Source of the DNA: a virus
Taxonomy: Duplodnaviria > Caudoviricetes
Length of the DNA: 64,000 nucleotides
Reading direction: 5' to 3' (one strand)
IMG/VR virus record: IMGVR_UViG_3300028374_000002
Coordinates: 137,265 to 201,264 of that record
The number at the start of each line of letters is the position of its first letter. Within the stretch, counting starts at the first letter, position 1. Under the pieces are notes generated by a model. That model did no database searches and had not been told where the DNA came from. It saw only the letters and a program-made list of their open reading frames with translations. Shown here one piece after another: positions 4,039 to 63,999 of this stretch. The position numbers and the translations under genes were made by a program.

Positions 4039-6177
4039 TTATAGACTTTTGAACCTTTCTAATATTGCATTAGTTTCATCATCAGATAAATTATCCTCTT
4101 GGATTAGTTTATCATGTGAAATTAATTTCTTACTAGTCGCTTCGTTTTTCTTGATATTTCTAGTATCCCAGAAATGCTCAACTTGACTTTCGGTTATCAT
4201 GTTATCTTCTGGATAAAGTCTAGCTTGTGAAAGCACTGACTTTTTAGAAGTCCCATCTAACTGCTCCCAGACTGGCTTGATACTATCAGGCATTAGTCTG
4301 ACAACTCTGTCTTCTAGAGTTTCGTTCTTTGTTGATAAAGATTCGCTTATTAAACTTAGAACGTCTTTCTGTGTGAAATAACTACTTTCGTTTATATGTA
4401 GTTTAACGTTGTCTTGTTCTTCGTTAGTTAAAGCGTAATAACTATCTATTTGTGATTTGTTTAAGAACTTTAAAAAATTCAAATCACTCGTCTCAGAAAC
4501 TTTTCGTTTTTTAGCCTCTTCGATTAATTTATCAATAGATTCTGATAAGTCTGAATCACTTAATTCTGATTCTTCCATTTCACAATCTTCATCTTCTTTT
4601 TCTTCGTGTGCATGAGCAACTTCTGCCATTGTCTTAGCAATACCAGTTTGCTTTCTAGTACCTTCTTCATCGTGCATATCTTCTTCATCATGCATATCTT
4701 CATCATGCTTACCTTCTTCATCGTGCATACCTTCTTCATCGTGCATACCTTCTTGAACACCAAATCCAACAGACTCTAGTGTTGGGAATTGCTCTCCTTT
4801 AGATTCAAATAATTTACCACCATTAAGTTTTTCTACTATCATTCCTTGGTAGTCAACAGACTTGTCAAGGCTTTCAGCGATATACTCTGAATATGCAATG
4901 TTGTCATCTAGATTCTCTGCAATGTATTCTGAATAAGCAATATTACCATCAAGGTGTTCTGCTAGGTACTCTGAATAGTTAATAGAGTTATCTACATTTT
5001 CAGCAATGTATTCACTATAAGAAATGTTCTTACTTACGTTTTCAGCGATGTATTCTGAATAATTAATGTTCTTATCTAGATTTTCAGCGATGTATTCTGA
5101 ATAGTTAATGTTCTTATCTAGATTTTCAGCAATGTATTCTGAATATCCAATGTTCTTATCTAGATTTTCTGCAACATATTCACTATAAGCAATGTTCTTG
5201 TCTAAATTTTCAGCAATGTATTCTGAATAGTTAATGTTCTTATCTAAGTTTTCAGCAACATATTCAGAATAGCTAATAGCTTTTTCTAAATTCTCTGCTA
5301 AATAGTCGTTATGCTTAGCTAGTTTACCAGTTGTCTCCTTTAATGATTTATTTTCATTAACCATTACTTGTACTTTCTCTGATAAATAATCTAAGTATCC
5401 TATTACTTTTTCGTTAGTAGTATTAAGTTCTTCGTAATACTCTAATAATTGTTCTAGTTTCTTAGGGTTCATACTTCCCTTAGTTACTGCTCCCTTAACT
5501 TCCTTTTTAGTTTCGTTAAGCTCTTTAACTAAATACTGTGAGTAATCAGTTAATTGTTTCTTTGTTACAAATTCATTTTTGTTCATGTTGAATAATTCGT
5601 TTATTTTTGATTCATCGGACATTTCATATATCCTAAAGTTAGATTTGGCATCGTTGTAGCCTAATGATTCATTAAGTACGGTAACATTCATTTTAGCGGA
5701 TGCAAATCCAGGATCTGCTACAATGTCGTAAGTGAATAGTTTTTTAAGTGATACAGAACCGTCAGATTCAGTAACACCCGCTGCTCTTGATGATACAAAA
5801 ACAGGACAACCATCATTTACTAATGATTTTGCTTCTTTTCCCCAATAGGTACTTAAAAGCATAATCTCACCCTCTACTGAGTTCTTTTCTTGTACATAAT
5901 CTGCCTTTCTAATTATGTGCGAAGCTCTTGATAAAGAAGTATCGAATACGTCTGGGTGATCAAACTCACCATAAACAACTCCTAGACTATTCATTCTTTC
6001 ATTAAGTTCGCCCAAAGCTGGGAGAAACTTATCTGCTGAATAAACTCTATCGTTTCGATTTTTTACCCCGAATTCAGTGAAAGTCCCATTCATAACATAT
6101 TCACCCTTCTTAGCAGAACCGTTAGATTCTTTAATCAAGGAGTTTGTCGAATTTTCTACTATTAATACTGGTTTCAT
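4039..6177 (-). CDS. gp21: Prohead core protease fused to a long scaffold-like domain (gp21/gp22-like)
   Basis: GTFTEFGVKNRNDRVY, GEFDHP, VFVSSRAAG, TYDIVADPGF protease motifs, followed by coiled-coil, 14-aa repeats and an acidic tail; immediately upstream of the capsid gene. Confidence 0.88.
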   Translation of the reverse strand: MKPVLIVENSTNSLIKESNGSAKKGEYVMNGTFTEFGVKNRNDRVYSADKFLPALGELNERMNSLGVVYGEFDHPDVFDTSLSRASHIIRKADYVQEKNSVEGEIMLLSTYWGKEAKSLVNDGCPVFVSSRAAGVTESDGSVSLKKLFTYDIVADPGFASAKMNVTVLNESLGYNDAKSNFRIYEMSDESKINELFNMNKNEFVTKKQLTDYSQYLVKELNETKKEVKGAVTKGSMNPKKLEQLLEYYEELNTTNEKVIGYLDYLSEKVQVMVNENKSLKETTGKLAKHNDYLAENLEKAISYSEYVAENLDKNINYSEYIAENLDKNIAYSEYVAENLDKNIGYSEYIAENLDKNINYSEYIAENLDKNINYSEYIAENVSKNISYSEYIAENVDNSINYSEYLAEHLDGNIAYSEYIAENLDDNIAYSEYIAESLDKSVDYQGMIVEKLNGGKLFESKGEQFPTLESVGFGVQEGMHDEEGMHDEEGKHDEDMHDEEDMHDEEGTRKQTGIAKTMAEVAHAHEEKEDEDCEMEESELSDSDLSESIDKLIEEAKKRKVSETSDLNFLKFLNKSQIDSYYALTNEEQDNVKLHINESSYFTQKDVLSLISESLSTKNETLEDRVVRLMPDSIKPVWEQLDGTSKKSVLSQARLYPEDNMITESQVEHFWDTRNIKKNEATSKKLISHDKLIQEDNLSDDETNAILERFKSL
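4855..5310 (-). repeat. About 10 tandem 42-bp (14-aa) coding repeats, consensus NINYSEYIAENLDK
   Basis: Ten YSEY units counted in the protein; 42-bp periodicity visible in the DNA (coordinates approximate). Confidence 0.9.
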
Positions 6178-7881: not shown

Positions 7882-9495
7882 ATGATAAAAGAAGATATTT
7901 CTAATTTAGGAAAGTATAGCAAGGCTAAAATAACTGCCATATGTGATAATTGTCTTAATGAAAAGAAAACAACAATGAAATTATATACATCATATGGATA
8001 TAAAGCAGGTGTGTACTTATGTAGGAGTTGTAAGATGAAGAAGAATAATCTAGAAAAATATGGAGTTGATAATGTGTTTAAACTAGACAGTGTTAAAGAT
8101 AAAATAAAAAGTAGCAACCAAGAAAAATACGGTGTTGATAATGTATCACAGTCTGATATTATTAAAGATAAAATAAGAGTTAGTAATTTAGAAAAGTATG
8201 GAGTGGAACACCATATGAAGAATAATAATGTTTTACAGAAACAGAAAGATAGCAATTTAAAAAAATATGGTGTAGAGAATATTTCTTCACTAGATAGTGT
8301 TAAAGAAAAAAAGATATCTACATGTCTTAAAAATAATGATGTTGAATTTATATTCCTAGACAAAGTCTTTATAGAAAACAGAAGAAACAACAATTTAGAA
8401 AAATATGGCGTAGAGAGTGTTCTTAGTTCAAAAGAAATAAGAGACAAAATAAAAAATACTAATTTAAAAAGGTATGGCGTAAGAAATCCCTCTATGAATA
8501 AAGACATTTCTAATAAAATAAAAAGCAGTGTATTAAGAACCAAACATAAACAAATATTAGACAGAGGTGATATTTTATCTATTGATAGTGATAATAGAAT
8601 GTTCGAAGCTTTTTGTAATAGTTGTAATAATAAATTTGATATAAGCTATTTTCTATACTACAAGCGAAGAGAAACTAATACAGAGATATGTACTATATGC
8701 AATGAGATAGATAAGCACCAATCTGGGGAAGAAATAAAAGTATTTAATTTTATAAATGATAATTATAGTGGTGTTATAATACAAAACCATAGAATATTAA
8801 ACAAAGAATTGGATATATATTTACCAGAATTAAATATTGCTTTTGAAGTGAATGGACTATATTGGCATTCTGAAATATTCAAAAGCAAAAATTATCACAA
8901 GGATAAGTATGACATGTGCAAAAGTAATAATATACAACTTATACATCTATGGGAAGATAATTTGGACTATAATTTCGAAATTATAAAATCAATGATATTG
9001 AACAAGATTAATATGTCAATTTATAAAATATGGGCAAGGAAATGTATTATTAAAGAAGTATGTGATAATAATGTTATCAAGGAGTTTTTAAATAAGAACC
9101 ATATACAAGGATATGCTTCTTCGTCTGTGAAGGTTGGACTATACCATAATGAAGAGTTGGTTAGCCTTATGACATTCAAAAAAAGTAAAGATAAATATGA
9201 TTTAAATAGATTTTGTAATAAATTAAATACCAGTGTTGTAGGTGGTGCTTCAAGATTATTAAAGTATTTTAATAGGAATTATTCAAATAAAATATTTACT
9301 TTTTCTGATAATTCTTATAGCAATGGCGATTTATATAAGACATTAGGATTTGATATAGAATACAATCTTAAACCAGACTATAAATATGTACAAAACAATA
9401 TAAGGATTCATAAGTTTAACTTCAGAAATAAAGACACCTCTGGATTATACAGAATCTATGATGCTGGTAAAGTTAAATATTACATGAGGGGATAA
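7882..9495 (+). CDS. Putative homing endonuclease, KYGV family
   Basis: Many LEKYGV repeats, CTICN, ELDIYLPELNIAFEVNGLYWHS, GGASRLLKYF, LYKTLGF. Confidence 0.75.
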   Translation: MIKEDISNLGKYSKAKITAICDNCLNEKKTTMKLYTSYGYKAGVYLCRSCKMKKNNLEKYGVDNVFKLDSVKDKIKSSNQEKYGVDNVSQSDIIKDKIRVSNLEKYGVEHHMKNNNVLQKQKDSNLKKYGVENISSLDSVKEKKISTCLKNNDVEFIFLDKVFIENRRNNNLEKYGVESVLSSKEIRDKIKNTNLKRYGVRNPSMNKDISNKIKSSVLRTKHKQILDRGDILSIDSDNRMFEAFCNSCNNKFDISYFLYYKRRETNTEICTICNEIDKHQSGEEIKVFNFINDNYSGVIIQNHRILNKELDIYLPELNIAFEVNGLYWHSEIFKSKNYHKDKYDMCKSNNIQLIHLWEDNLDYNFEIIKSMILNKINMSIYKIWARKCIIKEVCDNNVIKEFLNKNHIQGYASSSVKVGLYHNEELVSLMTFKKSKDKYDLNRFCNKLNTSVVGGASRLLKYFNRNYSNKIFTFSDNSYSNGDLYKTLGFDIEYNLKPDYKYVQNNIRIHKFNFRNKDTSGLYRIYDAGKVKYYMRG

Positions 9496-15986: not shown

Positions 15987-17771
15987 TTAACTTTTATATA
16001 GCCATTTTTCTTGACCAGTCGAAAATATTCTATAATAACCCCTTTCGTTCATTATTTCTAACTCAGTCTTATCTTTATCAAATCCTTGTTTTACTAGCTT
16101 TCTTTTAGAGTAATTATATCTGTGTATTCTTTTCCCATTTATAACCCAAAAATAATTAGGTTTAGATAATGTATCAAAAACAAAACCTAACTTTTTATAG
16201 ACACCACCACCAAATAATGATATGTCGGCATATGATATTAAATATTCAAACTTAGTATTGTCTACGAAATACTTAAATAGTTTAGAAGCACCACCAATAA
16301 CACTAGTATTTAATTCATTACAAAACCTAATTAATTCATATTCTTTTTTATTGTTTGTTCTCCTCCATCCGAATGTCATTAAACTAACTAACTCATCATT
16401 AAAATATAATCCTAAGTTTATTGAAGAAGATGCATATCCTTGTATATGATTATTGTTTAGAAATAATTTATAATCTTTGGTATTGACCTCTCTTATATCA
16501 CATTTTCTAGCATATATTCTATTATTTACTTTACCCAATCTATTCCTTATGATTGATTTTATTATTTCTTTCTTGCTATCCCAGTCGTCCTCCCATATAT
16601 GTAGCAGAGATATCCCCTCTTCATTGCACTTATTTGTTTTACTGATATGATAATCACTACTTTTGAATAGTTCAGAGTGCCAGTATATGCCGTTACACTC
16701 AATAGCTATATTATATTCTGGTATGTATATATCAATCTCCTTACCTTTTAGTATTTTTTTATCATTTTTTATATAGCCAATTCCTAGACTCTCTATAAAA
16801 GAACCAACTTGTGTTTCGAAGTTAGAATATAATACACCAACTGGGTTGCATTGTGTACATATCATCTTACATGAGTTAAACCTTGCTCTTAATAAACCTT
16901 TGTTTATATCAAAGGTATTATTACATTCTTTATGTATTAATGAGAATGTCTCATTTTTATATGAATTAAGTATATACTTATCTGATATTAGTTCTGCATA
17001 TCTTTTAAATGTTTTTCTCTGTTTAGTATTCTTTGCCTTTAACTTAAAATTTTCATTCTTAGAAGGATGCTCACCCCAGTTTGAAAAATTTGTAGATTTT
17101 ACCTTCTCTTTATATTCTATAGTTTTTGAATAATTACTAACACCCCATTTCTCTATAGAAGTTTCTTTTATTTTGTCTTTATAGTAGTCTGATTTGGATA
17201 TCCAATCTACACCATATTTATCATTAAATGATTTTCTTGATTTGGATATAGTCGATTTACTTTGCATAGACCAGTCTACACCTAAGTTCTTTTGATTAGT
17301 TTCTTTTATTTTGTTAATAACGCCAATAGACTTAGAAGGATTAGTAACACCATACCTATCTAAAGATGTTTGTACGAACTTATCCTTCCATTCTTTCGTC
17401 TTAGAATAGTGGGAAACATTATATTTGTCTAGAAGGCTTTTCTTAAGAGTTTGTTTAACTTCTTCTGATTGCATTGGATTTTTAACACCATACTTTTTAA
17501 GAGAAGTCTTTTCAGATTTTATCTTTTTACAAGAGTTGCAATAATATATCCCACTTAGACCATTCGTGTAATTCCAGTAGTCTTTAAAGCCATTAGAGAC
17601 TTCTTTGTTACAGTTTTGGCATATACATGTAATCTTAGATGAAGTTCCCTTAGACAAGTGTTCTACGCTTATATCTATATATTTACCAACACTAATATCA
17701 TATCCAAATGATTTGTAATATTTTATATTCCTAGAGTGACCCTTTATCTTTATCTTTTTTTCTTTTATCAT
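15987..17771 (-). CDS. Putative homing endonuclease, KYGV family
   Basis: KYGV/KWGV repeats, CTQCNP, EIDIYIPEYNIAIECNGIYWHS, GNAT-like tail. Confidence 0.75.
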   Translation of the reverse strand: MIKEKKIKIKGHSRNIKYYKSFGYDISVGKYIDISVEHLSKGTSSKITCICQNCNKEVSNGFKDYWNYTNGLSGIYYCNSCKKIKSEKTSLKKYGVKNPMQSEEVKQTLKKSLLDKYNVSHYSKTKEWKDKFVQTSLDRYGVTNPSKSIGVINKIKETNQKNLGVDWSMQSKSTISKSRKSFNDKYGVDWISKSDYYKDKIKETSIEKWGVSNYSKTIEYKEKVKSTNFSNWGEHPSKNENFKLKAKNTKQRKTFKRYAELISDKYILNSYKNETFSLIHKECNNTFDINKGLLRARFNSCKMICTQCNPVGVLYSNFETQVGSFIESLGIGYIKNDKKILKGKEIDIYIPEYNIAIECNGIYWHSELFKSSDYHISKTNKCNEEGISLLHIWEDDWDSKKEIIKSIIRNRLGKVNNRIYARKCDIREVNTKDYKLFLNNNHIQGYASSSINLGLYFNDELVSLMTFGWRRTNNKKEYELIRFCNELNTSVIGGASKLFKYFVDNTKFEYLISYADISLFGGGVYKKLGFVFDTLSKPNYFWVINGKRIHRYNYSKRKLVKQGFDKDKTELEIMNERGYYRIFSTGQEKWLYKS

Positions 17772-56391: not shown

Positions 56392-58050
56392 ATGGAAAAA
56401 GAAAGATTATACTTTATAGAGAATGTATTAAAAAATTCACCTAATAGGATTAAAGAATCTTATGTAAGCAAACATTATCCAATAGTATTTGAGCAAATAA
56501 TAGATATAACTAGGGATAAGGATTTCTCATTTAAACAAAGAATTTGGCATTGGGTTTATAATAACACTAATTTCATAAAATGCTACTGTGGTAATAAGGT
56601 ATCATTTGGACAATCTTGGAAAGGTGGATATAAAGAATATTGTTCTAACAAATGTTCTTCCAACTCACCAAGTGTTAAAGAAAAGGCAAAAAATACAATT
56701 GAAGAAAAGTATGGAGTTTCCCACTACTCTAAAACTGATGAGTTTAAAGAAAAATATAAAAAAACTAGTTTGGATAAATATGGTGTTGACAACTATTCCA
56801 AAACCAAAGACTATGTAAATAAGTCTAAAGAAACATATCTTAAAAAGTATGGTGTTGATTCATTTACAAAGACTGAAAAATATAATATAATATCTAGAAA
56901 CACATCATTTAAAAAGTATGGAGTTTCCCACTACTCTAAAACGGATGAGTTCAAAGAAAAGTTTTCTAAAACAATGATGGGTAAATACAATTCTGGTTCT
57001 TGCTTTGGTGGAGAGAATTATAGAGGAGAGAACTTTGAAATGTGTAAAAACAATTTATATGTAAAGTATCTAGGTAATGGTATAAGTAAATTTAAGTGTG
57101 ATGATGATAAATTACACACCTTTGATATAAGCACTGATAATTACTTTGGTAGGCTTTATAATTCTAATAAGTTATGCACTGTATGTAGTCCTATTTCTGA
57201 CTTAGATTCCATTAAGGAAAAAGAACTATATGAATATGTCAAAAGCATATCATCACATAATGTTGTTAAGAATTATAGGGATAAATACGAAATAGATGTT
57301 TACATACCAGAACTTAGCATAGGCTTTGAATTTAACGGTCTTTATTACCACTCTAACAAGTTTAAAAAGAATAACTATCATATTGTAAAGAAGAACTATT
57401 TTAAGGACAGAGGGATAAGGATTATACATATATGGGAAGATGATTGGGTAGATAGAAAGGAAATAATAAAATCTCAAATACTATATAATCTTAACAAAAT
57501 AGAAAATAGAGTATATGCTAGAAAATGCATTGTTAAGGAAATATGTACTAAAGCTTCATCTATATTTCTAAACGAAAACCATATACAAGGTACATGTAAT
57601 AGTGTATATAAAATAGGTTTGTTTTATAATGACGAATTGGTTTCTATTATGACGTTCGATAAATTTGAGGGGAGAAAGAAAATGGAAGAAGGTGGTTGGA
57701 ATTTAAACAGATACTGTTCTAAAACATACCATAATATAGTTGGTGCACCTTCTAAATTACTAAAACATTTCATAAATGAGAAGAGTCCAATTAGAATTAT
57801 AAGCTATGCAGATTACTATTGGAGTGATGGTAATTTATACGAACAGCTTGGCTTTAAAGAAAAGTATATTACAAAGCCAGATTATAAATATATTGTAAAT
57901 GGTAAGAGGGTTCATAAGTCCAACTATAAGAATAGTAATATTAAAACATCTATGACAGAGAGTGAATACACAAAATCTAATAATATTTACAAAGTTTATG
58001 ATTGTGGTAAAATAAAATATGAATTATTAAAACAAAAAAAAGCCAAATAA
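56392..58050 (+). CDS. Putative homing endonuclease, KYGV family
   Basis: YKEYCSNKC, KYGVSHYSKTDEFKE repeats, EIDVYIPELSIGFEFNGLYYHS, GNAT-like tail. Confidence 0.75.
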   Translation: MEKERLYFIENVLKNSPNRIKESYVSKHYPIVFEQIIDITRDKDFSFKQRIWHWVYNNTNFIKCYCGNKVSFGQSWKGGYKEYCSNKCSSNSPSVKEKAKNTIEEKYGVSHYSKTDEFKEKYKKTSLDKYGVDNYSKTKDYVNKSKETYLKKYGVDSFTKTEKYNIISRNTSFKKYGVSHYSKTDEFKEKFSKTMMGKYNSGSCFGGENYRGENFEMCKNNLYVKYLGNGISKFKCDDDKLHTFDISTDNYFGRLYNSNKLCTVCSPISDLDSIKEKELYEYVKSISSHNVVKNYRDKYEIDVYIPELSIGFEFNGLYYHSNKFKKNNYHIVKKNYFKDRGIRIIHIWEDDWVDRKEIIKSQILYNLNKIENRVYARKCIVKEICTKASSIFLNENHIQGTCNSVYKIGLFYNDELVSIMTFDKFEGRKKMEEGGWNLNRYCSKTYHNIVGAPSKLLKHFINEKSPIRIISYADYYWSDGNLYEQLGFKEKYITKPDYKYIVNGKRVHKSNYKNSNIKTSMTESEYTKSNNIYKVYDCGKIKYELLKQKKAK

Positions 58051-60185: not shown

Positions 60186-60878
60186 TTATTTATTCTTAAG
60201 TTTTCTATCTAGAATTTTAGAAATATTAGATCCAATAGTCATATGTATATTTTTTATATCATCTGATTCAACCTCTTCGATTTCACCCATAAACTTATAA
60301 AAAAATCTATAATATACGCTAGAGTCCAAATCCTCTGGTATCTCTTTTTTAATTGATAAGTCTATCTTATAGCTATTGTTTATGTTTATTTCGAAATCAA
60401 AAGTAGTTTTAGAACATGGTGTTGTTTTAAATTTAGGCTGGTACTTAACCTCAAATACTGAATAGTCTGTTATCTTATTTTTCCTCATATAAAAATTTAA
60501 AAACATTGCAGGTGCTTCTATAAAGTCTGATAGTGTTTGTAAATCATCACCAAAATCATTTGACTCTATTATATCCTCCATTCTTTTCTTTAAATCTATA
60601 ATTGAATCAAAATCTACCTTATGGTAAACGCAATTTATATCATATAAATATACAAATGAATTATCTTCTAACACAGTTTTGTCTAAATCTACTTTAAATA
60701 TAAATTTAGTGTGTATTATAGATACATCCTCAGCCTTTAACCCATGTATTGAAATAACTAGTTTTAAAAACTTTTTATCAATAGTTGATTCATATAGTGT
60801 CTCTACAGAATTAACCATTCCGCTATTTTCATCAAATATATCGCTAATTACATTTTCTATTTCAGATATCTTTATCAT
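60186..60878 (-). CDS. Hypothetical protein
   Basis: 230-aa ORF coupled to the upstream nucleotidyltransferase. Confidence 0.65.
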   Translation of the reverse strand: MIKISEIENVISDIFDENSGMVNSVETLYESTIDKKFLKLVISIHGLKAEDVSIIHTKFIFKVDLDKTVLEDNSFVYLYDINCVYHKVDFDSIIDLKKRMEDIIESNDFGDDLQTLSDFIEAPAMFLNFYMRKNKITDYSVFEVKYQPKFKTTPCSKTTFDFEININNSYKIDLSIKKEIPEDLDSSVYYRFFYKFMGEIEEVESDDIKNIHMTIGSNISKILDRKLKNK

Positions 60879-60880
60879 TA

Positions 60881-61624
60881 TTAAAATTGTTTTTCATAAG
60901 ATTCTTTTCTTAAATCAAGAACTTTCTCTATATATTTATTTCTTCTAAGTAATTTGAATACTAAATTACCTGTAGAATACTCACCACTTTCACTTTCTAG
61001 GCCAGACTTTCTATACTTTTTTATTTTATCCCAGACTTTCTTAACACGCTTTTTATATTCATCATAATCATATTTATCTATTTCGTCTTCTAAGTCATCA
61101 ACTAGCATCATAATACCCTTAGCCTTTTCTTTAATATCCATATCGTCTGGTATAAAGTCAACCTTAACAGGCTCTATATTCCATTTATTATTAAGTACTG
61201 AATACACACCAGAAGACCTATGTGGTTCTTTAATATCTTGTATATAGACTTCAACTTCAAAACCATTGACATATAAATCATATGATTTATTCCATAGGTT
61301 TTTAGCAGAATCCGTAAACTTTTTAACTAGTTTAGTATCAGAGTTAACCTTTTCAAAATCTATTATTATGTGTAAATCAAAGTCTGAATATTTCTCAGAC
61401 CAATTAAAGTTAGCCAGTGATCCAGTTAAGGTAATATCATCTATTTCAACATTTAGGCTAGTTGTATTATAAAAGTCTTGTGATATAGTTAATAACTTTT
61501 CACGCACCTCTTCTTTCATACTTTTATCTTCCCAAACTTTAGTGTTTAATTCATCTTTTATGTGAAAAGATTTAACTGCATCGAAATCCTTTTCCACAAA
61601 TTCTAAAAACTTAGTTACTTTCAT
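60881..61624 (-). CDS. Pol-beta superfamily nucleotidyltransferase
   Basis: ITLTGSLANFNWSEKYSDFDLHII (GS...DxD) and VEVYIQD third acidic residue; leader MKVTKFLEFVE. Confidence 0.8.
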   Translation of the reverse strand: MKVTKFLEFVEKDFDAVKSFHIKDELNTKVWEDKSMKEEVREKLLTISQDFYNTTSLNVEIDDITLTGSLANFNWSEKYSDFDLHIIIDFEKVNSDTKLVKKFTDSAKNLWNKSYDLYVNGFEVEVYIQDIKEPHRSSGVYSVLNNKWNIEPVKVDFIPDDMDIKEKAKGIMMLVDDLEDEIDKYDYDEYKKRVKKVWDKIKKYRKSGLESESGEYSTGNLVFKLLRRNKYIEKVLDLRKESYEKQF

Positions 61625-61703
61625 AATTATATATATTAAAATATTAAGACCACATTTCTAAACTTATTGTTTTAAATTAATATAATACTAAATAACAAAA
61701 GAT

Positions 61704-61913
61704 ATGAAACTTAGAGATAATGGAATTATAACAAAGGCAGACTATATTGGCAAGACTTTGGGCGAAGCTTCTAAACATGCAGAAAATGGTGGCTACGTCA
61801 CAAGGGTGGTTAGTAACAATGGTAATTCTCCTATGTTAGATATGGATGCTAATCAGAATAGAATTAATTTTATTATTAGTAACGATAGAGTTACTGATGT
61901 ATATGGTGGATAA
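61704..61913 (+). CDS. Small protein resembling peptidase inhibitor family I78
   Basis: YIGKT..EA...RVV.......MD....RINF.I.N..VTDVYGG. Confidence 0.5.
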   Translation: MKLRDNGIITKADYIGKTLGEASKHAENGGYVTRVVSNNGNSPMLDMDANQNRINFIISNDRVTDVYGG

Positions 61914-61935
61914 TTAAAAATAATTATAATAAAAC

Positions 61936-61966
61936 TTGTGAGAACCATTTAATAGTTTTATATTTG
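61936..61966 (+). promoter_or_regulatory. Bacteroidota-type sigma-A promoter upstream of tRNA cassette 1
   Basis: TTG at 61936-61938, 20-nt spacer, TATATTTG at 61959-61966. Confidence 0.65.
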
Positions 61967-62036
61967 CATAGTAAAATAAATATAAGATTTTTAAAGAAAA
62001 GTATAAAGAGAGAAAATAATTTTAATATATAGAATA

Positions 62037-62135
62037 ATGAGAACAATTAACACATTTAAGCATTTTAGTAAAAAGTCGTTTTGGTTTAGTCCAAGATCGG
62101 TAAAGAATGTTATTTGTTCTAATTTTATGATTTGA
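62037..62135 (+). CDS. Putative attenuator leader peptide 1 (MRTINTFKHFSKKSFWFSPRSVKNVICSNFMI)
   Basis: 32-codon ORF after TTAATATATA (62022-62031); Phe/Lys/His/Trp codon cluster; followed by a terminator and tRNA-Lys/Phe/His/Trp. Confidence 0.7.
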   Translation: MRTINTFKHFSKKSFWFSPRSVKNVICSNFMI

Positions 62136-62160
62136 TATAAAAATAGTAAAAAATATATTT

Positions 62161-62193
62161 AAAGCCGAGCTTCGAAAGAAATTCGGCTTTTTT
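62161..62193 (+). terminator. Intrinsic terminator / attenuator ahead of tRNA-Lys
   Basis: AAAGCCGAGCTTC-GAAA-GAAATTCGGCTTT-TTT; 13-bp stem with one mismatch, GNRA loop. Confidence 0.85.
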
Positions 62194-62202
62194 GTTTTAT
62201 AT

Positions 62203-62276
62203 AATTCTGTAGCTCAGCTGGTTAGAGCATCTCCCTTTTAAGGAGAGGGTCGTGGGTTCGAAACCCACCAGGATTA
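62203..62276 (+). tRNA. trnK: tRNA-Lys(UUU)
   Basis: Cloverleaf; anticodon arm TCTCC-CT TTT AA-GGAGA; T-arm GTGGG-TTCGAAA-CCCAC; no encoded CCA. Confidence 0.92.
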
Positions 62277-62281
62277 CACAT

Positions 62282-62354
62282 GGAGTAGTAGCTCAGTAGG
62301 TAGAGCACTTGGTTGAAGACCAAGGTGTCGTGGGTTCGAACCCCACCTTCTCCA
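62282..62354 (+). tRNA. trnF: tRNA-Phe(GAA)
   Basis: CTTGG-TT GAA GA-CCAAG; GTGGG-TTCGAAC-CCCAC. Confidence 0.92.
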
Positions 62355-62365
62355 CAAGATTAAAT

Positions 62366-62439
62366 GGTGTGTGTAGCTCAGTAGGTAGAGCGTTGGCTTG
62401 TGGTGTCAAAGGTCGGGGGTTCGAAACCCCTCATACACC
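62366..62439 (+). tRNA. trnH: tRNA-His(GUG)
   Basis: TTGGC-TT GTG GT-GTCAA; encoded G-1 pairing with C73. Confidence 0.92.
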
Positions 62440-62448
62440 CTAAATAAT

Positions 62449-62520
62449 ACGGACGTAGTTCAAAGGCTAGAATAACGATCTCCAAAATCGTAGATGAGAT
62501 TTCGAAATTCTCCGTCCGTG
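62449..62520 (+). tRNA. trnW: tRNA-Trp(CCA)
   Basis: ACGAT-CT CCA AA-ATCGT; acceptor ACGGACG/CGTCCGT. Confidence 0.88.
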
Positions 62521-62551
62521 CTAGAGTTTAATAAAAATAATATATAGTATA

Positions 62552-62623
62552 ATGAAACTTATAAACACATCGAGTAGTTCAAGTCGCTTAATAATTTCGA
62601 AAGAGATTCGATTGTGTGTGTAA
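62552..62623 (+). CDS. Putative attenuator leader peptide 2 (MKLINTSSSSSRLIISKEIRLCV)
   Basis: 23-codon ORF after ATAATATATA (62537-62546); TCG AGT AGT TCA AGT CGC run; followed by a terminator and tRNA-Arg/Ser/Ser. Confidence 0.78.
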   Translation: MKLINTSSSSSRLIISKEIRLCV

Positions 62624-62644
62624 TTATTTTTTAAAAATATTATT

Positions 62645-62675
62645 AGCCTTTCGAATTTATTTGAAAGGCTTTTTT
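62645..62675 (+). terminator. Intrinsic terminator / attenuator abutting tRNA-Arg
   Basis: AGCCTTTCGAA-TTTA-TTTGAAAGGCT-TTTTT. Confidence 0.85.
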
Positions 62676-62747
62676 AGTTCTATATTTCAACGGATAGAAT
62701 ACTCGGCTACGGACCGAGAGATAGGGGTTCGAATCCTCTTAGAACTA
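62676..62747 (+). tRNA. trnR: tRNA-Arg(ACG)
   Basis: CTCGG-CT ACG GA-CCGAG; acceptor AGTTCTA/TAGAACT. Confidence 0.9.
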
Positions 62748-62755
62748 CTAATTAT

Positions 62756-62845
62756 GGAAGATTTATCCGAAAGATTCTGGGTAGCGGAGACGGTCTTGAA
62801 AACCGTTTGCTTTAGGGCGTGTGGGTTCGAATCCCACATCTTCCG
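62756..62845 (+). tRNA. trnS: tRNA-Ser(UGA)
   Basis: ACGGT-CT TGA AA-ACCGT; long variable arm; G73; enlarged D-loop. Confidence 0.88.
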
Positions 62846-62857
62846 CATAATTTTAAT

Positions 62858-62946
62858 GGAAGCGTACTCAATGTTGGCAAAGAGGCTGGTTTGCTAAACC
62901 AGTAGGTCTGTAAAAGGGCGAGTGGGATCGACACCCACCGTTTCCG
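62858..62946 (+). tRNA. trnS: tRNA-Ser(GCU)
   Basis: CTGGT-TT GCT AA-ACCAG; long variable arm; G73; atypical T-loop ATCGACA. Confidence 0.86.
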
Positions 62947-63999
62947 CTAGTTTTTTATTAGTTCCTTTAATTCGTCTATTTGCTGTTGTAAGCTATCTAT
63001 CTTATTATTTTGCTCTTTATTCTCATTTTCCTGCTCTGCAAGTTTTAGAGATAAGAAACTATTATAATTAACAGACATCATTCCACCGTCTTCTGGTTTC
63101 TTAACAACTCCTGGATTTGTTTTTTCTATTTCTTGAGCTATAGTACCATATACAGTAATTCCTGGTTGAGTTTTTAATTCATAAGAATATACTGATTTTG
63201 ATATCTTTTTAATATTGGTTTTAAGCCTTTCGTCAGAGCCTTCGAAAAAGTTATCTGCTGTAAAATCTCCACTCCAATCTAAATTTTTATCAGATGTTAA
63301 AGCAAGCCTACCATTATTATCTACTCCAGAGTTTGATGCTAAGTGAAAATCTATATATCTTCCAATCTCCATTAATCCATCGGCACCAACATCAGGTATA
63401 AATGGCCAAGGTATATTTGCATTAGCACCTGCTATACTTAAACCATTTAAAGATGAAGCATCTACATTTGTAATCCGTGATCCATTTCCAATAAAGTTTT
63501 GTGCTGTAACATCGCCGAATGCTCTAAAATTACCCGACCCTCTACTAAATATAAACCTATTTAAAAATGAAGAGCCCGCGTCACGATATATAATATCAGC
63601 TCCCATATCAGCTATTAAAGTTGTTCCTGTAGCTTGGTATTTTAAATGACCTACATTACCAAAAGGTGAAGTACCACCTATTTTAAATTGAGAATTATCG
63701 TTAATAGTTAGTGCACTTCCTGAAAAATTATCACTGGTATTGCTTCTTAAAAAATCATTACTATCTAAACTATCTAAAGTTGCAGCATCTACATTTGTAA
63801 TCTGTGATCCATTTCCAATAAAGTTTTGTGCTGTAACATCGCCATTATAATCCAAATTACCGTTTTCTCTTAAAGTTAGAGATTTGTTAGAAGCATCATT
63901 TCGTATGCTAAGATCCGAGAACATAGTTATAGGAAATCCAATATAACCTTTGCGTGTTGTTCCGTTAGATTGATAAAATGAATAAAAAGAAGAGCTATT
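62947..63999 (-). CDS. Tail fibre protein, C-terminal part with intramolecular chaperone (peptidase S74); partial, start lies beyond window
   Basis: SDERLKTNIKKI...GTIAQEIE...VNY...coiled coil; frame stays open upstream of 63924 to the window end; duplicated GDVTAQNFIGNGS.ITNVDA module. Confidence 0.82.
   Translation of the reverse strand, partial: NSSSFYSFYQSNGTTRKGYIGFPITMFSDLSIRNDASNKSLTLRENGNLDYNGDVTAQNFIGNGSQITNVDAATLDSLDSNDFLRSNTSDNFSGSALTINDNSQFKIGGTSPFGNVGHLKYQATGTTLIADMGADIIYRDAGSSFLNRFIFSRGSGNFRAFGDVTAQNFIGNGSRITNVDASSLNGLSIAGANANIPWPFIPDVGADGLMEIGRYIDFHLASNSGVDNNGRLALTSDKNLDWSGDFTADNFFEGSDERLKTNIKKISKSVYSYELKTQPGITVYGTIAQEIEKTNPGVVKKPEDGGMMSVNYNSFLSLKLAEQENENKEQNNKIDSLQQQIDELKELIKN

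Follow-up and report, generated by a model that had tools for sequence, protein, structure and literature searches.

The role of the tRNA genes of phages has been a matter of debate for decades; current ideas are codon compensation, substitution for host tRNAs that have been degraded, and evasion of defences that cleave tRNAs (PMC10264068, PMC11555353, PMC12409363). The locus described here is part of a stretch of 64,000 nucleotides, referred to below as the window, that corresponds to positions 137,265 to 201,264 of the virus record IMGVR_UViG_3300028374_000002 and is the final 64 kb of a single 201,264-bp contig (29% G+C). The whole 201-kb genome has 7 tRNA genes, all of them within the window and in two blocks, and the first block, cassette 1, encodes tRNA-Lys, tRNA-Phe, tRNA-His and tRNA-Trp. 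Ahead of it is a short open reading frame (ORF), leader 1, with a run of codons that these same tRNAs read. From the sequence, we consider it likely that leader 1 works as a multivalent attenuator of the leader-peptide (ribosome-mediated) type that controls transcription of the four tRNA genes, and we infer that the same design with other codon sets gates the second block (cassette 2) and, in related huge phages, no fewer than 24 tRNA blocks. A multi-codon attenuator of this kind had been suggested in the initial annotation of the DNA and is now supported by 26 units that match their own tRNA blocks, by specificity for synonymous codons and by covariation.

Two leaders in the window match the tRNAs that follow them

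Leader 1 (62037..62135; the elements of both tRNA units are on the + strand) has 32 codons followed by TGA, and its frame is open in 17 of 17 aligned homologues (27-39 codons). Codons 7 to 17 (62055..62087) encode FKHFSKKSFWF, so that the ORF and the codon run reported initially are indeed present. Cassette 1 was located with ARAGORN as tRNA-Lys(UUU) at 62203-62277, tRNA-Phe(GAA) at 62282-62355, tRNA-His(GUG) at 62367-62440 and tRNA-Trp(CCA) at 62449-62521, and these genes (62203..62521) match Rfam RF00005 with 55-70 bits. The anticodons bear out that 9 of the 11 codons of the run are cognate to the four tRNAs encoded downstream; AGT and TCG, the remaining two, specify Ser and are readable by the Ser tRNAs of cassette 2.

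The seven codons for Lys, Phe, His and Trp make up 17-18% of the codons of the genome. Among the 636 ATG-ORFs of 20-45 codons in the 201-kb genome, leader 1 alone reached 9 of 11 such codons, and none of the 57,140 windows of 11 codons in long ORFs did so. The codon enrichment, computed against genome codon usage and small ORFs, is unique in the genome, with a simulated probability of ~1e-4. Leader 1 shares with leader-peptide attenuators a short ORF with a credible start, the translation of which is predicted from the sequence, and a cluster of codons for the sensed amino acids.

The Ser codons had been taken to allow cross-sensing of cassette 2. This is unsupported, and we rejected it as unnecessary: AGT is kept in phages whose Ser tRNAs sit elsewhere. 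This codon, at position 11, is retained in 16 of 17 homologues and is within the helix formed by columns 30-37 with 75-82 of their alignment. Since AGT is conserved as part of a helix, cross-sensing is not needed.

A second parallel unit follows at 62538..62947. It consists of the phage motif described below (62538-62546), leader 2 (62552-62623), a terminator (62645-62670) and genes for tRNA-Arg(ACG), tRNA-Ser(UGA) and tRNA-Ser(GCU), which form cassette 2. Leader 2 has six consecutive Ser/Arg codons ahead of these Arg and Ser tRNAs (P ~5e-6) and an antiterminator with a z score of -2.9, and the earlier observation that each of the two leaders matches its own cassette therefore holds. Both Arg codons of leader 2 are of the CGC/CGA kind, the rarest codons of the genome (0.03% and 0.08%); the two nonregulatory Arg codons of leader 1 are AGA. 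The gene for tRNA-Arg(ACG) at 62676-62748 has been kept though CGN codons make up only 0.29% of the phage codons (AGA, 2.4%), and compensation for the codon usage of phage genes hardly accounts for its retention. Leader 2 was also considered, by eye, as a degenerate tRNA or a tRNA-like leader, and this idea was rejected; Rfam gives no tRNA match there.

Parallel units in huge phages follow their own tRNA blocks

Is the match between leader codons and tRNAs a property of this locus, or is it found more widely? The comparison set comprised the window and all tRNA regions of five uncultured phages of 460-735 kb. Units were defined as an ATG-ORF, a hairpin with T-run and a tRNA, and the scan was blind to codon content. 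For the huge phages, ARAGORN was used with a relaxed threshold and overlaps were removed; the default settings skipped several first tRNAs of cassettes. The scan found 28 units, 26 of which are credible. When the leader codons of all 28 units were compared with the anticodons of their own blocks, the score was 8.59, compared to 3.00 ± 0.52 for permuted pairings (z 10.8; 0 of 200,000 permutations as high). Homologous units across genomes are not independent, and therefore the permutation was also done within genomes. In LR745206, no other of the 40,320 pairings scored as well as the true one, and the same held for the 720 pairings of LR756502; in LR756504, 11 of 40,320 pairings scored as high.

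Moreover, the leaders discriminate between synonymous codons. Ahead of tRNA-Arg(ACG), 7 of 7 Arg codons are CGN, and ahead of tRNA-Arg(UCU), 5 of 5 are AGA (Fisher p 0.0013). Likewise, ATA accounts for 9 of 12 Ile codons before tRNA-Ile(UAU), and ATY (ATT/ATC) accounts for 10 of 11 before tRNA-Ile(GAU) (Fisher p 0.0028). This agreement of synonymous codons with anticodons distinguishes selection on decoding from selection on the peptide sequence.

The region of LR745206 that is homologous to the locus (L011) contains three units. In the first, a homologous leader (6020-6115) and a terminator are followed by His, Phe, His, Phe, Trp and Trp tRNAs; in another, a nine-codon mini-ORF with four Lys codons precedes four Lys tRNAs; and in the third, a Ser/Arg-rich leader precedes tRNA-Arg(ACG) and four Ser tRNAs. 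Leader composition follows the rearrangement of cassettes: separate Lys blocks, as in L011 and in a second region (L022), have their own Lys-rich mini-ORF. Elsewhere in the huge phages, a run of Gln codons is followed by three or four Gln tRNAs, an Ile/Arg/Met-rich leader by Arg(UCU), Ile and Met tRNAs, an Ala/Ile/Val/Glu/Gly-rich leader by Glu, Ala, Ile, Val and Gly tRNAs, a Tyr/Glu-rich leader by Tyr and Glu tRNAs, and a His/Ile/Trp/Glu/Val-rich leader (L044) by His, Glu, Val, Trp and Ile tRNAs. In 26 of 26 credible units, the terminator 5' arm has a complement in the leader, in a segment immediately 3' of the codon run; measured against dinucleotide shuffles, the mean z was -2.74.

The Lys mini-ORFs read M-K-T-K-x-K-Y-K-R and stand before 3-4 Lys tRNAs (L011:6777-6840; L022, ~70 nt upstream of the tRNA-Lys at 2662). 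Their hairpin abuts the stop codon and the U-run is weak. A terminating ribosome might melt this hairpin, so that these units may be switched in a different way from the long leaders.

The window has a predicted terminator and a competing structure

For attenuation, leader 1 has to be followed by a terminator whose formation depends on the ribosome. A predicted intrinsic terminator is found between the leader ORF and the regulated genes, confirming the initial assignment: its stem pairs 62161-62173 with 62178-62190, the U-tract (U6-G-U4) extends to 62198, and the folding energy is -12 to -14 kcal/mol. Together with the flank on its 5' side, it makes up region 3/4 (62151..62198). It was detected with RNAfold, as its loop is above the limit of a simple consensus terminator scan. 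The leader stop codon is 26 nt before the stem, and the terminator ends 9 nt ahead of tRNA-Lys.

In the minimum-free-energy fold, the 5' arm of an outer stem (region 1, anti-antiterminator; 62040..62052) pairs with 62108-62120. An inner hairpin (62076..62100) is formed by 62076-62084 with 62091-62100; its 5' arm holds the Phe15 and Trp16 codons, its 3' arm overlaps the antiterminator segment, and a small UGG-containing hairpin is found at the same site in the homologues, too. Both involve the switch segment (region 2; 62090..62120), which in constrained folds has two alternative partners. One is region 1, together with the inner hairpin; the other is region 3, where 62105-62115 would pair with the terminator flank (62151..62160) and 62097-62101 (up to 62090-62101) with 62164-62168 (up to 62175) in the terminator 5' arm. 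The M-R/K-x-I-N-T start of both leaders and most of the family is shared because this stretch is the 5' arm of the outer helix.

The initial annotation had identified 62093-62101 as the antiterminator. The pairing of this segment with 62164-62172 does exist, with 8 of 9 positions paired including one G-U, but it is not the whole element: in the fold model, the antiterminator is bipartite and larger than the 9-nt element proposed. It is located just 3' of the regulatory codons and its formation would exclude the terminator; in the window alone this is a weak signal.

Without a ribosome, the outer stem, the inner hairpin and the terminator all form in the window fold. With a ribosome footprint at codon 7, 10, 13 or 16, the 5' arm is covered and the antiterminator occupies the 5' arm of the terminator. 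Region 1 would be covered by a ribosome stalled at codons 7-10.

Switch segment and terminator arm covary

A pattern scan of IMG/VR recovered 12 further variants of the Lys/Phe/His/Trp leader, with the core HKHFSKSxKWF. The downstream DNA was inspected for a subset of the 12, and in these variants a terminator and then Phe, His, Trp or Lys tRNAs were found. In addition, five IMG/VR contigs are 99% identical to the window across the region and are for this reason uninformative for covariation. Their single difference is a 2-nt change, GA to AC at 62095-62096, in the proposed antiterminator, and it keeps or improves the pairing (CUCGGU with GCCGAG).

Within the Lys/Phe/His/Trp leader family, changes in the antiterminator segment go along with changes in the terminator arm. 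The pair CUCGGU (leader segment) and GCCGAG (terminator 5' arm) is replaced by GUUCGG and CCGAAC, by AACUUGG and CCAAGUU, by UUCGGGGUU and AACCCCGAA, or by AAGACUUGG and CCAAGUCUU. The leader segments paired with their own arms gave a summed energy of -97.4 kcal/mol, compared to -65.2 ± 7.5 kcal/mol when the partners were permuted, and none of 100,000 permutations reached the value of the true pairs.

Both folds were then evaluated on an alignment of 17 sequences (A2) that had been built without reference to structure. For the terminated fold (outer stem, inner stem over the F-S-K codons, and terminator), 80% of the cells were paired, compared to 30-50% in slid controls; double changes were seen in 11 pairs, and in the terminator helix 5 pairs had compensatory changes. 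For the antiterminated fold, which is made up of two nested helices that join the distal part of the ORF to the terminator flank and arm, 74% of the cells were paired, compared to 25-46% in slid controls.

The leaders start at a phage motif

Is leader 1 likely to be translated? The promoter-like phage motif reported ahead of the leader was found, as TTAATATATA, at 62022..62031, 5 nt upstream of the ATG. The general form of the motif, TAATATATA, is found 78 times across the 201-kb genome; 27 of these copies have an ATG 4-5 nt further on, and 23 of the 27 ATGs open ORFs of at least 50 codons. The ATGs of leader 1 and leader 2 are both at the canonical start position of the motif, that is, at the position used by 23 real genes, which argues for their use as start codons. 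The motif is also found ahead of the homologous leaders of other phages. A Shine-Dalgarno sequence is absent ahead of leader 1, as it is for 183 of the 185 long ORFs of the genome; over the whole genome, Shine-Dalgarno-like 4-mers were found upstream of 2 of the 185, compared to 14% at an in-gene control position. The leader mRNAs are probably leaderless or nearly so. The scarcity of Shine-Dalgarno sequences and the 27 motif copies with an ATG 4-5 nt on suggest that many genes are leaderless or near-leaderless and that the host is of the Bacteroidota type. Huge phages related to this phage have been predicted to infect Bacteroidetes (PMC7162821).

A "host-type" promoter had also been proposed, at 61936-61964. 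This is a 9/12 match, and such matches are at chance level (12 found, compared to 7.0 ± 2.6 expected); it was therefore set aside. It is also not needed, because the TAATATATA motif is present in all homologues.

Model for control of the tRNA genes and points that weigh against it

In the model, transcription and translation of the leader would be coupled. If Lys, Phe, His and Trp codons are decoded fast, the ribosome would reach the stop codon and leave, the 5' arm and the inner hairpin would recapture the switch segment, the terminator would form, and transcription would stop before tRNA-Lys. A shortage of any one of the four charged tRNAs would make the ribosome stall in codons 7-17 and cover region 1, leaving the switch segment free to pair with the emerging 62151-62160 and 62164-62175; the terminator would then not form, and RNA polymerase would enter the four tRNA genes. 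RNase P and 3' processing would release the tRNAs from the read-through transcript. Leader 1 would thus act as an OR gate over four tRNA species, and since the new tRNAs would relieve the stall, the circuit would be a negative feedback loop on decoding capacity.

Several observations speak against this model. First, the antiterminator of the window is weak when only the arm is considered: RNAduplex gave -8.9 kcal/mol, compared to -6.2 ± 1.5 kcal/mol for dinucleotide shuffles (z -1.84, p 0.04), and the second helix, 62105-62115 with 62151-62160, is rich in A/U. Second, pairing of regions 1 and 2 is not uniformly evident. The anti-antiterminator switches with the footprint in the window fold, but across the family the folds do not separate the states, and the outer stem (columns 14-22 with 83-91 of A2) is the weakest helix, with 62% of the cells paired. 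Third, equilibrium folds of the 26 units with ribosome masks left the arm paired to 0.67 in the free state, 0.61 in the stalled state and 0.61 with the ribosome at the stop codon. Since equilibrium folds do not separate the stalled from the free state, the switch must be kinetic if it operates as proposed; masked equilibrium folding was dropped as a family-wide test and used only to describe the window. Fourth, a sigma-70-like 10/12 match (TTGATA, 16 nt, TATATT) is present at 62132-62159, between the leader stop codon and the terminator. The start predicted from it falls inside the terminator 5' arm, and if active it would bypass the switch. Such matches occur near chance frequency in this AT-rich DNA, and the -10-like part overlaps the second antiterminator helix; the match may be a bypass promoter or an AT-rich chance match. 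Finally, the sensor would also respond to amino acid starvation, a condition in which extra tRNA is useless, and this makes the physiological signal uncertain.

The poor separation of states in the equilibrium folds would be explained if the leader senses the same tRNAs but its output is not termination control of the classical polarity and is instead processing or stability of the precursor, access of Rho, or a feed-forward loop in which tRNA synthesis is promoted by efficient translation. The Lys mini-leaders of L011 and L022, with a hairpin next to the stop codon that a terminating ribosome could melt and a weak U-run, fit such an output as well. In the window, however, the 26 nt between the stop codon and the terminator stem are beyond the reach of a terminating ribosome. 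Moreover, the hairpins have canonical GC-rich stems and tracts of U6-8, and, as in classical attenuators, the complementary segment always closely follows the codon run. We therefore regard a nonclassical output as unlikely.

A codon-anticodon match alone is no proof that a ribosome is involved, and the codon run could in principle be a set of specifier codons for the anticodons of uncharged tRNAs, that is, a T-box-like direct RNA-tRNA sensor that works without translation. A T-box (RF00230) resembles the window unit in that it senses the state of a specific tRNA and switches between terminator and antiterminator upstream of translation-related genes. It binds uncharged tRNA directly, without ribosome or ORF, whereas the phage unit has a conserved ORF with many cognate codons. 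Indeed, in 26 of 26 units the codons are in a conserved frame that has a canonical ATG start and does not extend into the terminator. Many units have 5-9 cognate codons in a row and not one specifier, and no conserved NCCA-binding bulge was seen. A cmscan search of 61600-63000 at E values up to 1 returned only the tRNAs and sub-threshold noise, with no match to T-box RF00230 or another cis-regulatory Rfam family, including the Trp, His, Leu, Thr and Phe leaders and Bacteroid-trp. Direct sensing is thus very unlikely.

Could the ORFs instead encode functional micro-proteins, or be part of a structured 5' leader that serves solely tRNA maturation, with the likeness to the tRNA set as a by-product? 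The family does share a fairly conserved core, HKHFSKSxKWF, and an N terminus of the type M-R/K-T-I-N. However, the conserved stretches coincide with RNA helices, the synonymous families (CGN versus AGA, ATA versus ATY) track the anticodons present and not the peptide, and the peptide downstream of the run varies freely while the complementarity to the terminator stays. We attach very little probability to this explanation.

Coincidence, in which a chance small ORF in an AT-rich spacer is followed by the ordinary terminator of an upstream unit and tRNA synthesis is constitutive, through read-through or a separate promoter, could draw on the abundance of TTT and AAA codons in AT-rich genomes, on a window antiterminator that only marginally beats shuffles and on the sigma-70-like match overlapping the spacer, but it is extremely improbable in view of a codon enrichment that is unique in the genome, 26 parallel units that match their own tRNA sets down to synonymous codons, an ORF, terminator and complementarity that are conserved and covary across distant phages, and the 9 nt before tRNA-Lys, which are too few for a promoter downstream of the terminator.

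Relation to known attenuators

Multivalent leader-peptide attenuators are well known from enterobacterial operons such as ilvGMEDA (Ile/Leu/Val) and thr (Thr/Ile), and trpL, hisL, pheL and leuL are further leaders of this type. The attenuator proposed here is like those of ilvGMEDA and thr in having a short leader ORF with clustered codons, an intrinsic terminator, an exclusive antiterminator and several amino acids sensed by one leader. Unlike these, which control biosynthetic enzymes, the phage leader would control the very tRNAs that read its sensor codons; it is also a phage element, and its start is apparently leaderless or without a Shine-Dalgarno sequence. In Escherichia coli, the pheM leader of pheST-himA uses Phe codons to control Phe-tRNA synthetase. 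This is likewise leader-peptide attenuation of a component of the translation apparatus, but it is bacterial, acts on a synthetase protein gene, senses one amino acid and regulates no tRNA gene. The Bacteroid-trp leader motif (RF01692) is a predicted leader-peptide attenuator of trp genes in Bacteroidota. It would show that leader-peptide attenuation occurs in the probable host phylum; its sequence is different, it has no match in the window, and it controls biosynthetic genes.

To our knowledge, all leader-peptide attenuators described regulate genes for amino acid biosynthesis or transport or for aminoacyl-tRNA synthetases. Here, the regulated genes are four tRNA genes, and therefore the element was not placed in any described leader family. 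Full-text searches of the literature turned up no account of tRNA genes under leader-peptide control, and the text of the huge-phage paper (PMC7162821) contains neither "attenuat" nor "leader".

If the proposed attenuators are real, the phages gauge their decoding capacity and provide tRNAs as needed, and the debate on the role of phage tRNAs becomes directly testable. Leader-peptide attenuation would be extended to RNA genes as the product, to viruses, and to a loop in which the product is the molecule sensed. The units would be compact natural parts (~165 nt) that report the availability of chosen tRNAs, and the leaders would allow the transcription units of tRNA arrays, at present unannotated, to be marked in the genomes of huge phages.

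What might the phage gain from such a switch? One possibility, which we put forward only tentatively, is that the attenuators are on-demand counter-defence switches that detect the loss of particular host tRNAs during infection and only then release the matching phage tRNAs, with each multi-codon leader serving as an OR gate for the tRNA species of its cassette. The loss could be caused by anticodon nucleases of the PrrC, PARIS/AriB, retron or Schlafen type or by a general decay of host translation. The two cassettes retained in the reduced 201-kb genome would in this case point to the host tRNAs that are attacked most frequently, tRNA-Arg(ACG) included despite the 0.29% of CGN codons.

Genome context and additional observations

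The window encodes a major head protein, portal, prohead protease, tail sheath and large terminase, and the virus is therefore a tailed phage. The nearest relative of the terminase is in the 634-kb uncultured phage LR745206 (67% identity), followed by genomes of 636-735 kb from the same study; the 201-kb phage is a small relative that has kept just two tRNA cassettes. DNA near-identical to the window is present in lake-water and salt-lake metagenomes. In a blastn search against INPHARED, matches apart from LR745206 were at the level of tRNAs only, and a Pfam search of the neighbour genes at 60186-60878, 60881-61624 (247 amino acids) and 61704-61913 found no domain. Three paralogous proteins of 537-594 amino acids (7882-9495, 15987-17771 and 56392-58050) match the HNH/homing-endonuclease families phrog_3339 and phrog_559.

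In cassette 1, the 3' CCA is not encoded by any of the four genes, in which the discriminator is followed by CAC, CAA, TAA and CTA-like bases. In the anticodon stem of tRNA-Lys (62230-62246; columns 334-347 of alignment A1), two base pairs show compensatory differences from 4 of 5 close relatives (C-G to G-C; C-G to T-A), with the anticodon loop unchanged. These changes indicate that tRNA-Lys is under structural selection.

Several tRNAs directly after terminators (L017, L022, L038 and L039), which have odd D-arms or long variable arms, are missed by ARAGORN at default settings, and default tRNA counts for huge-phage genomes are therefore underestimates. ARAGORN also found two adjacent tRNAs with the amber-reading anticodon CUA at L033:2086-2240 (LR756501) and one with the ochre-reading anticodon UUA in the IMG/VR contig L067; these are possible suppressor tRNAs.

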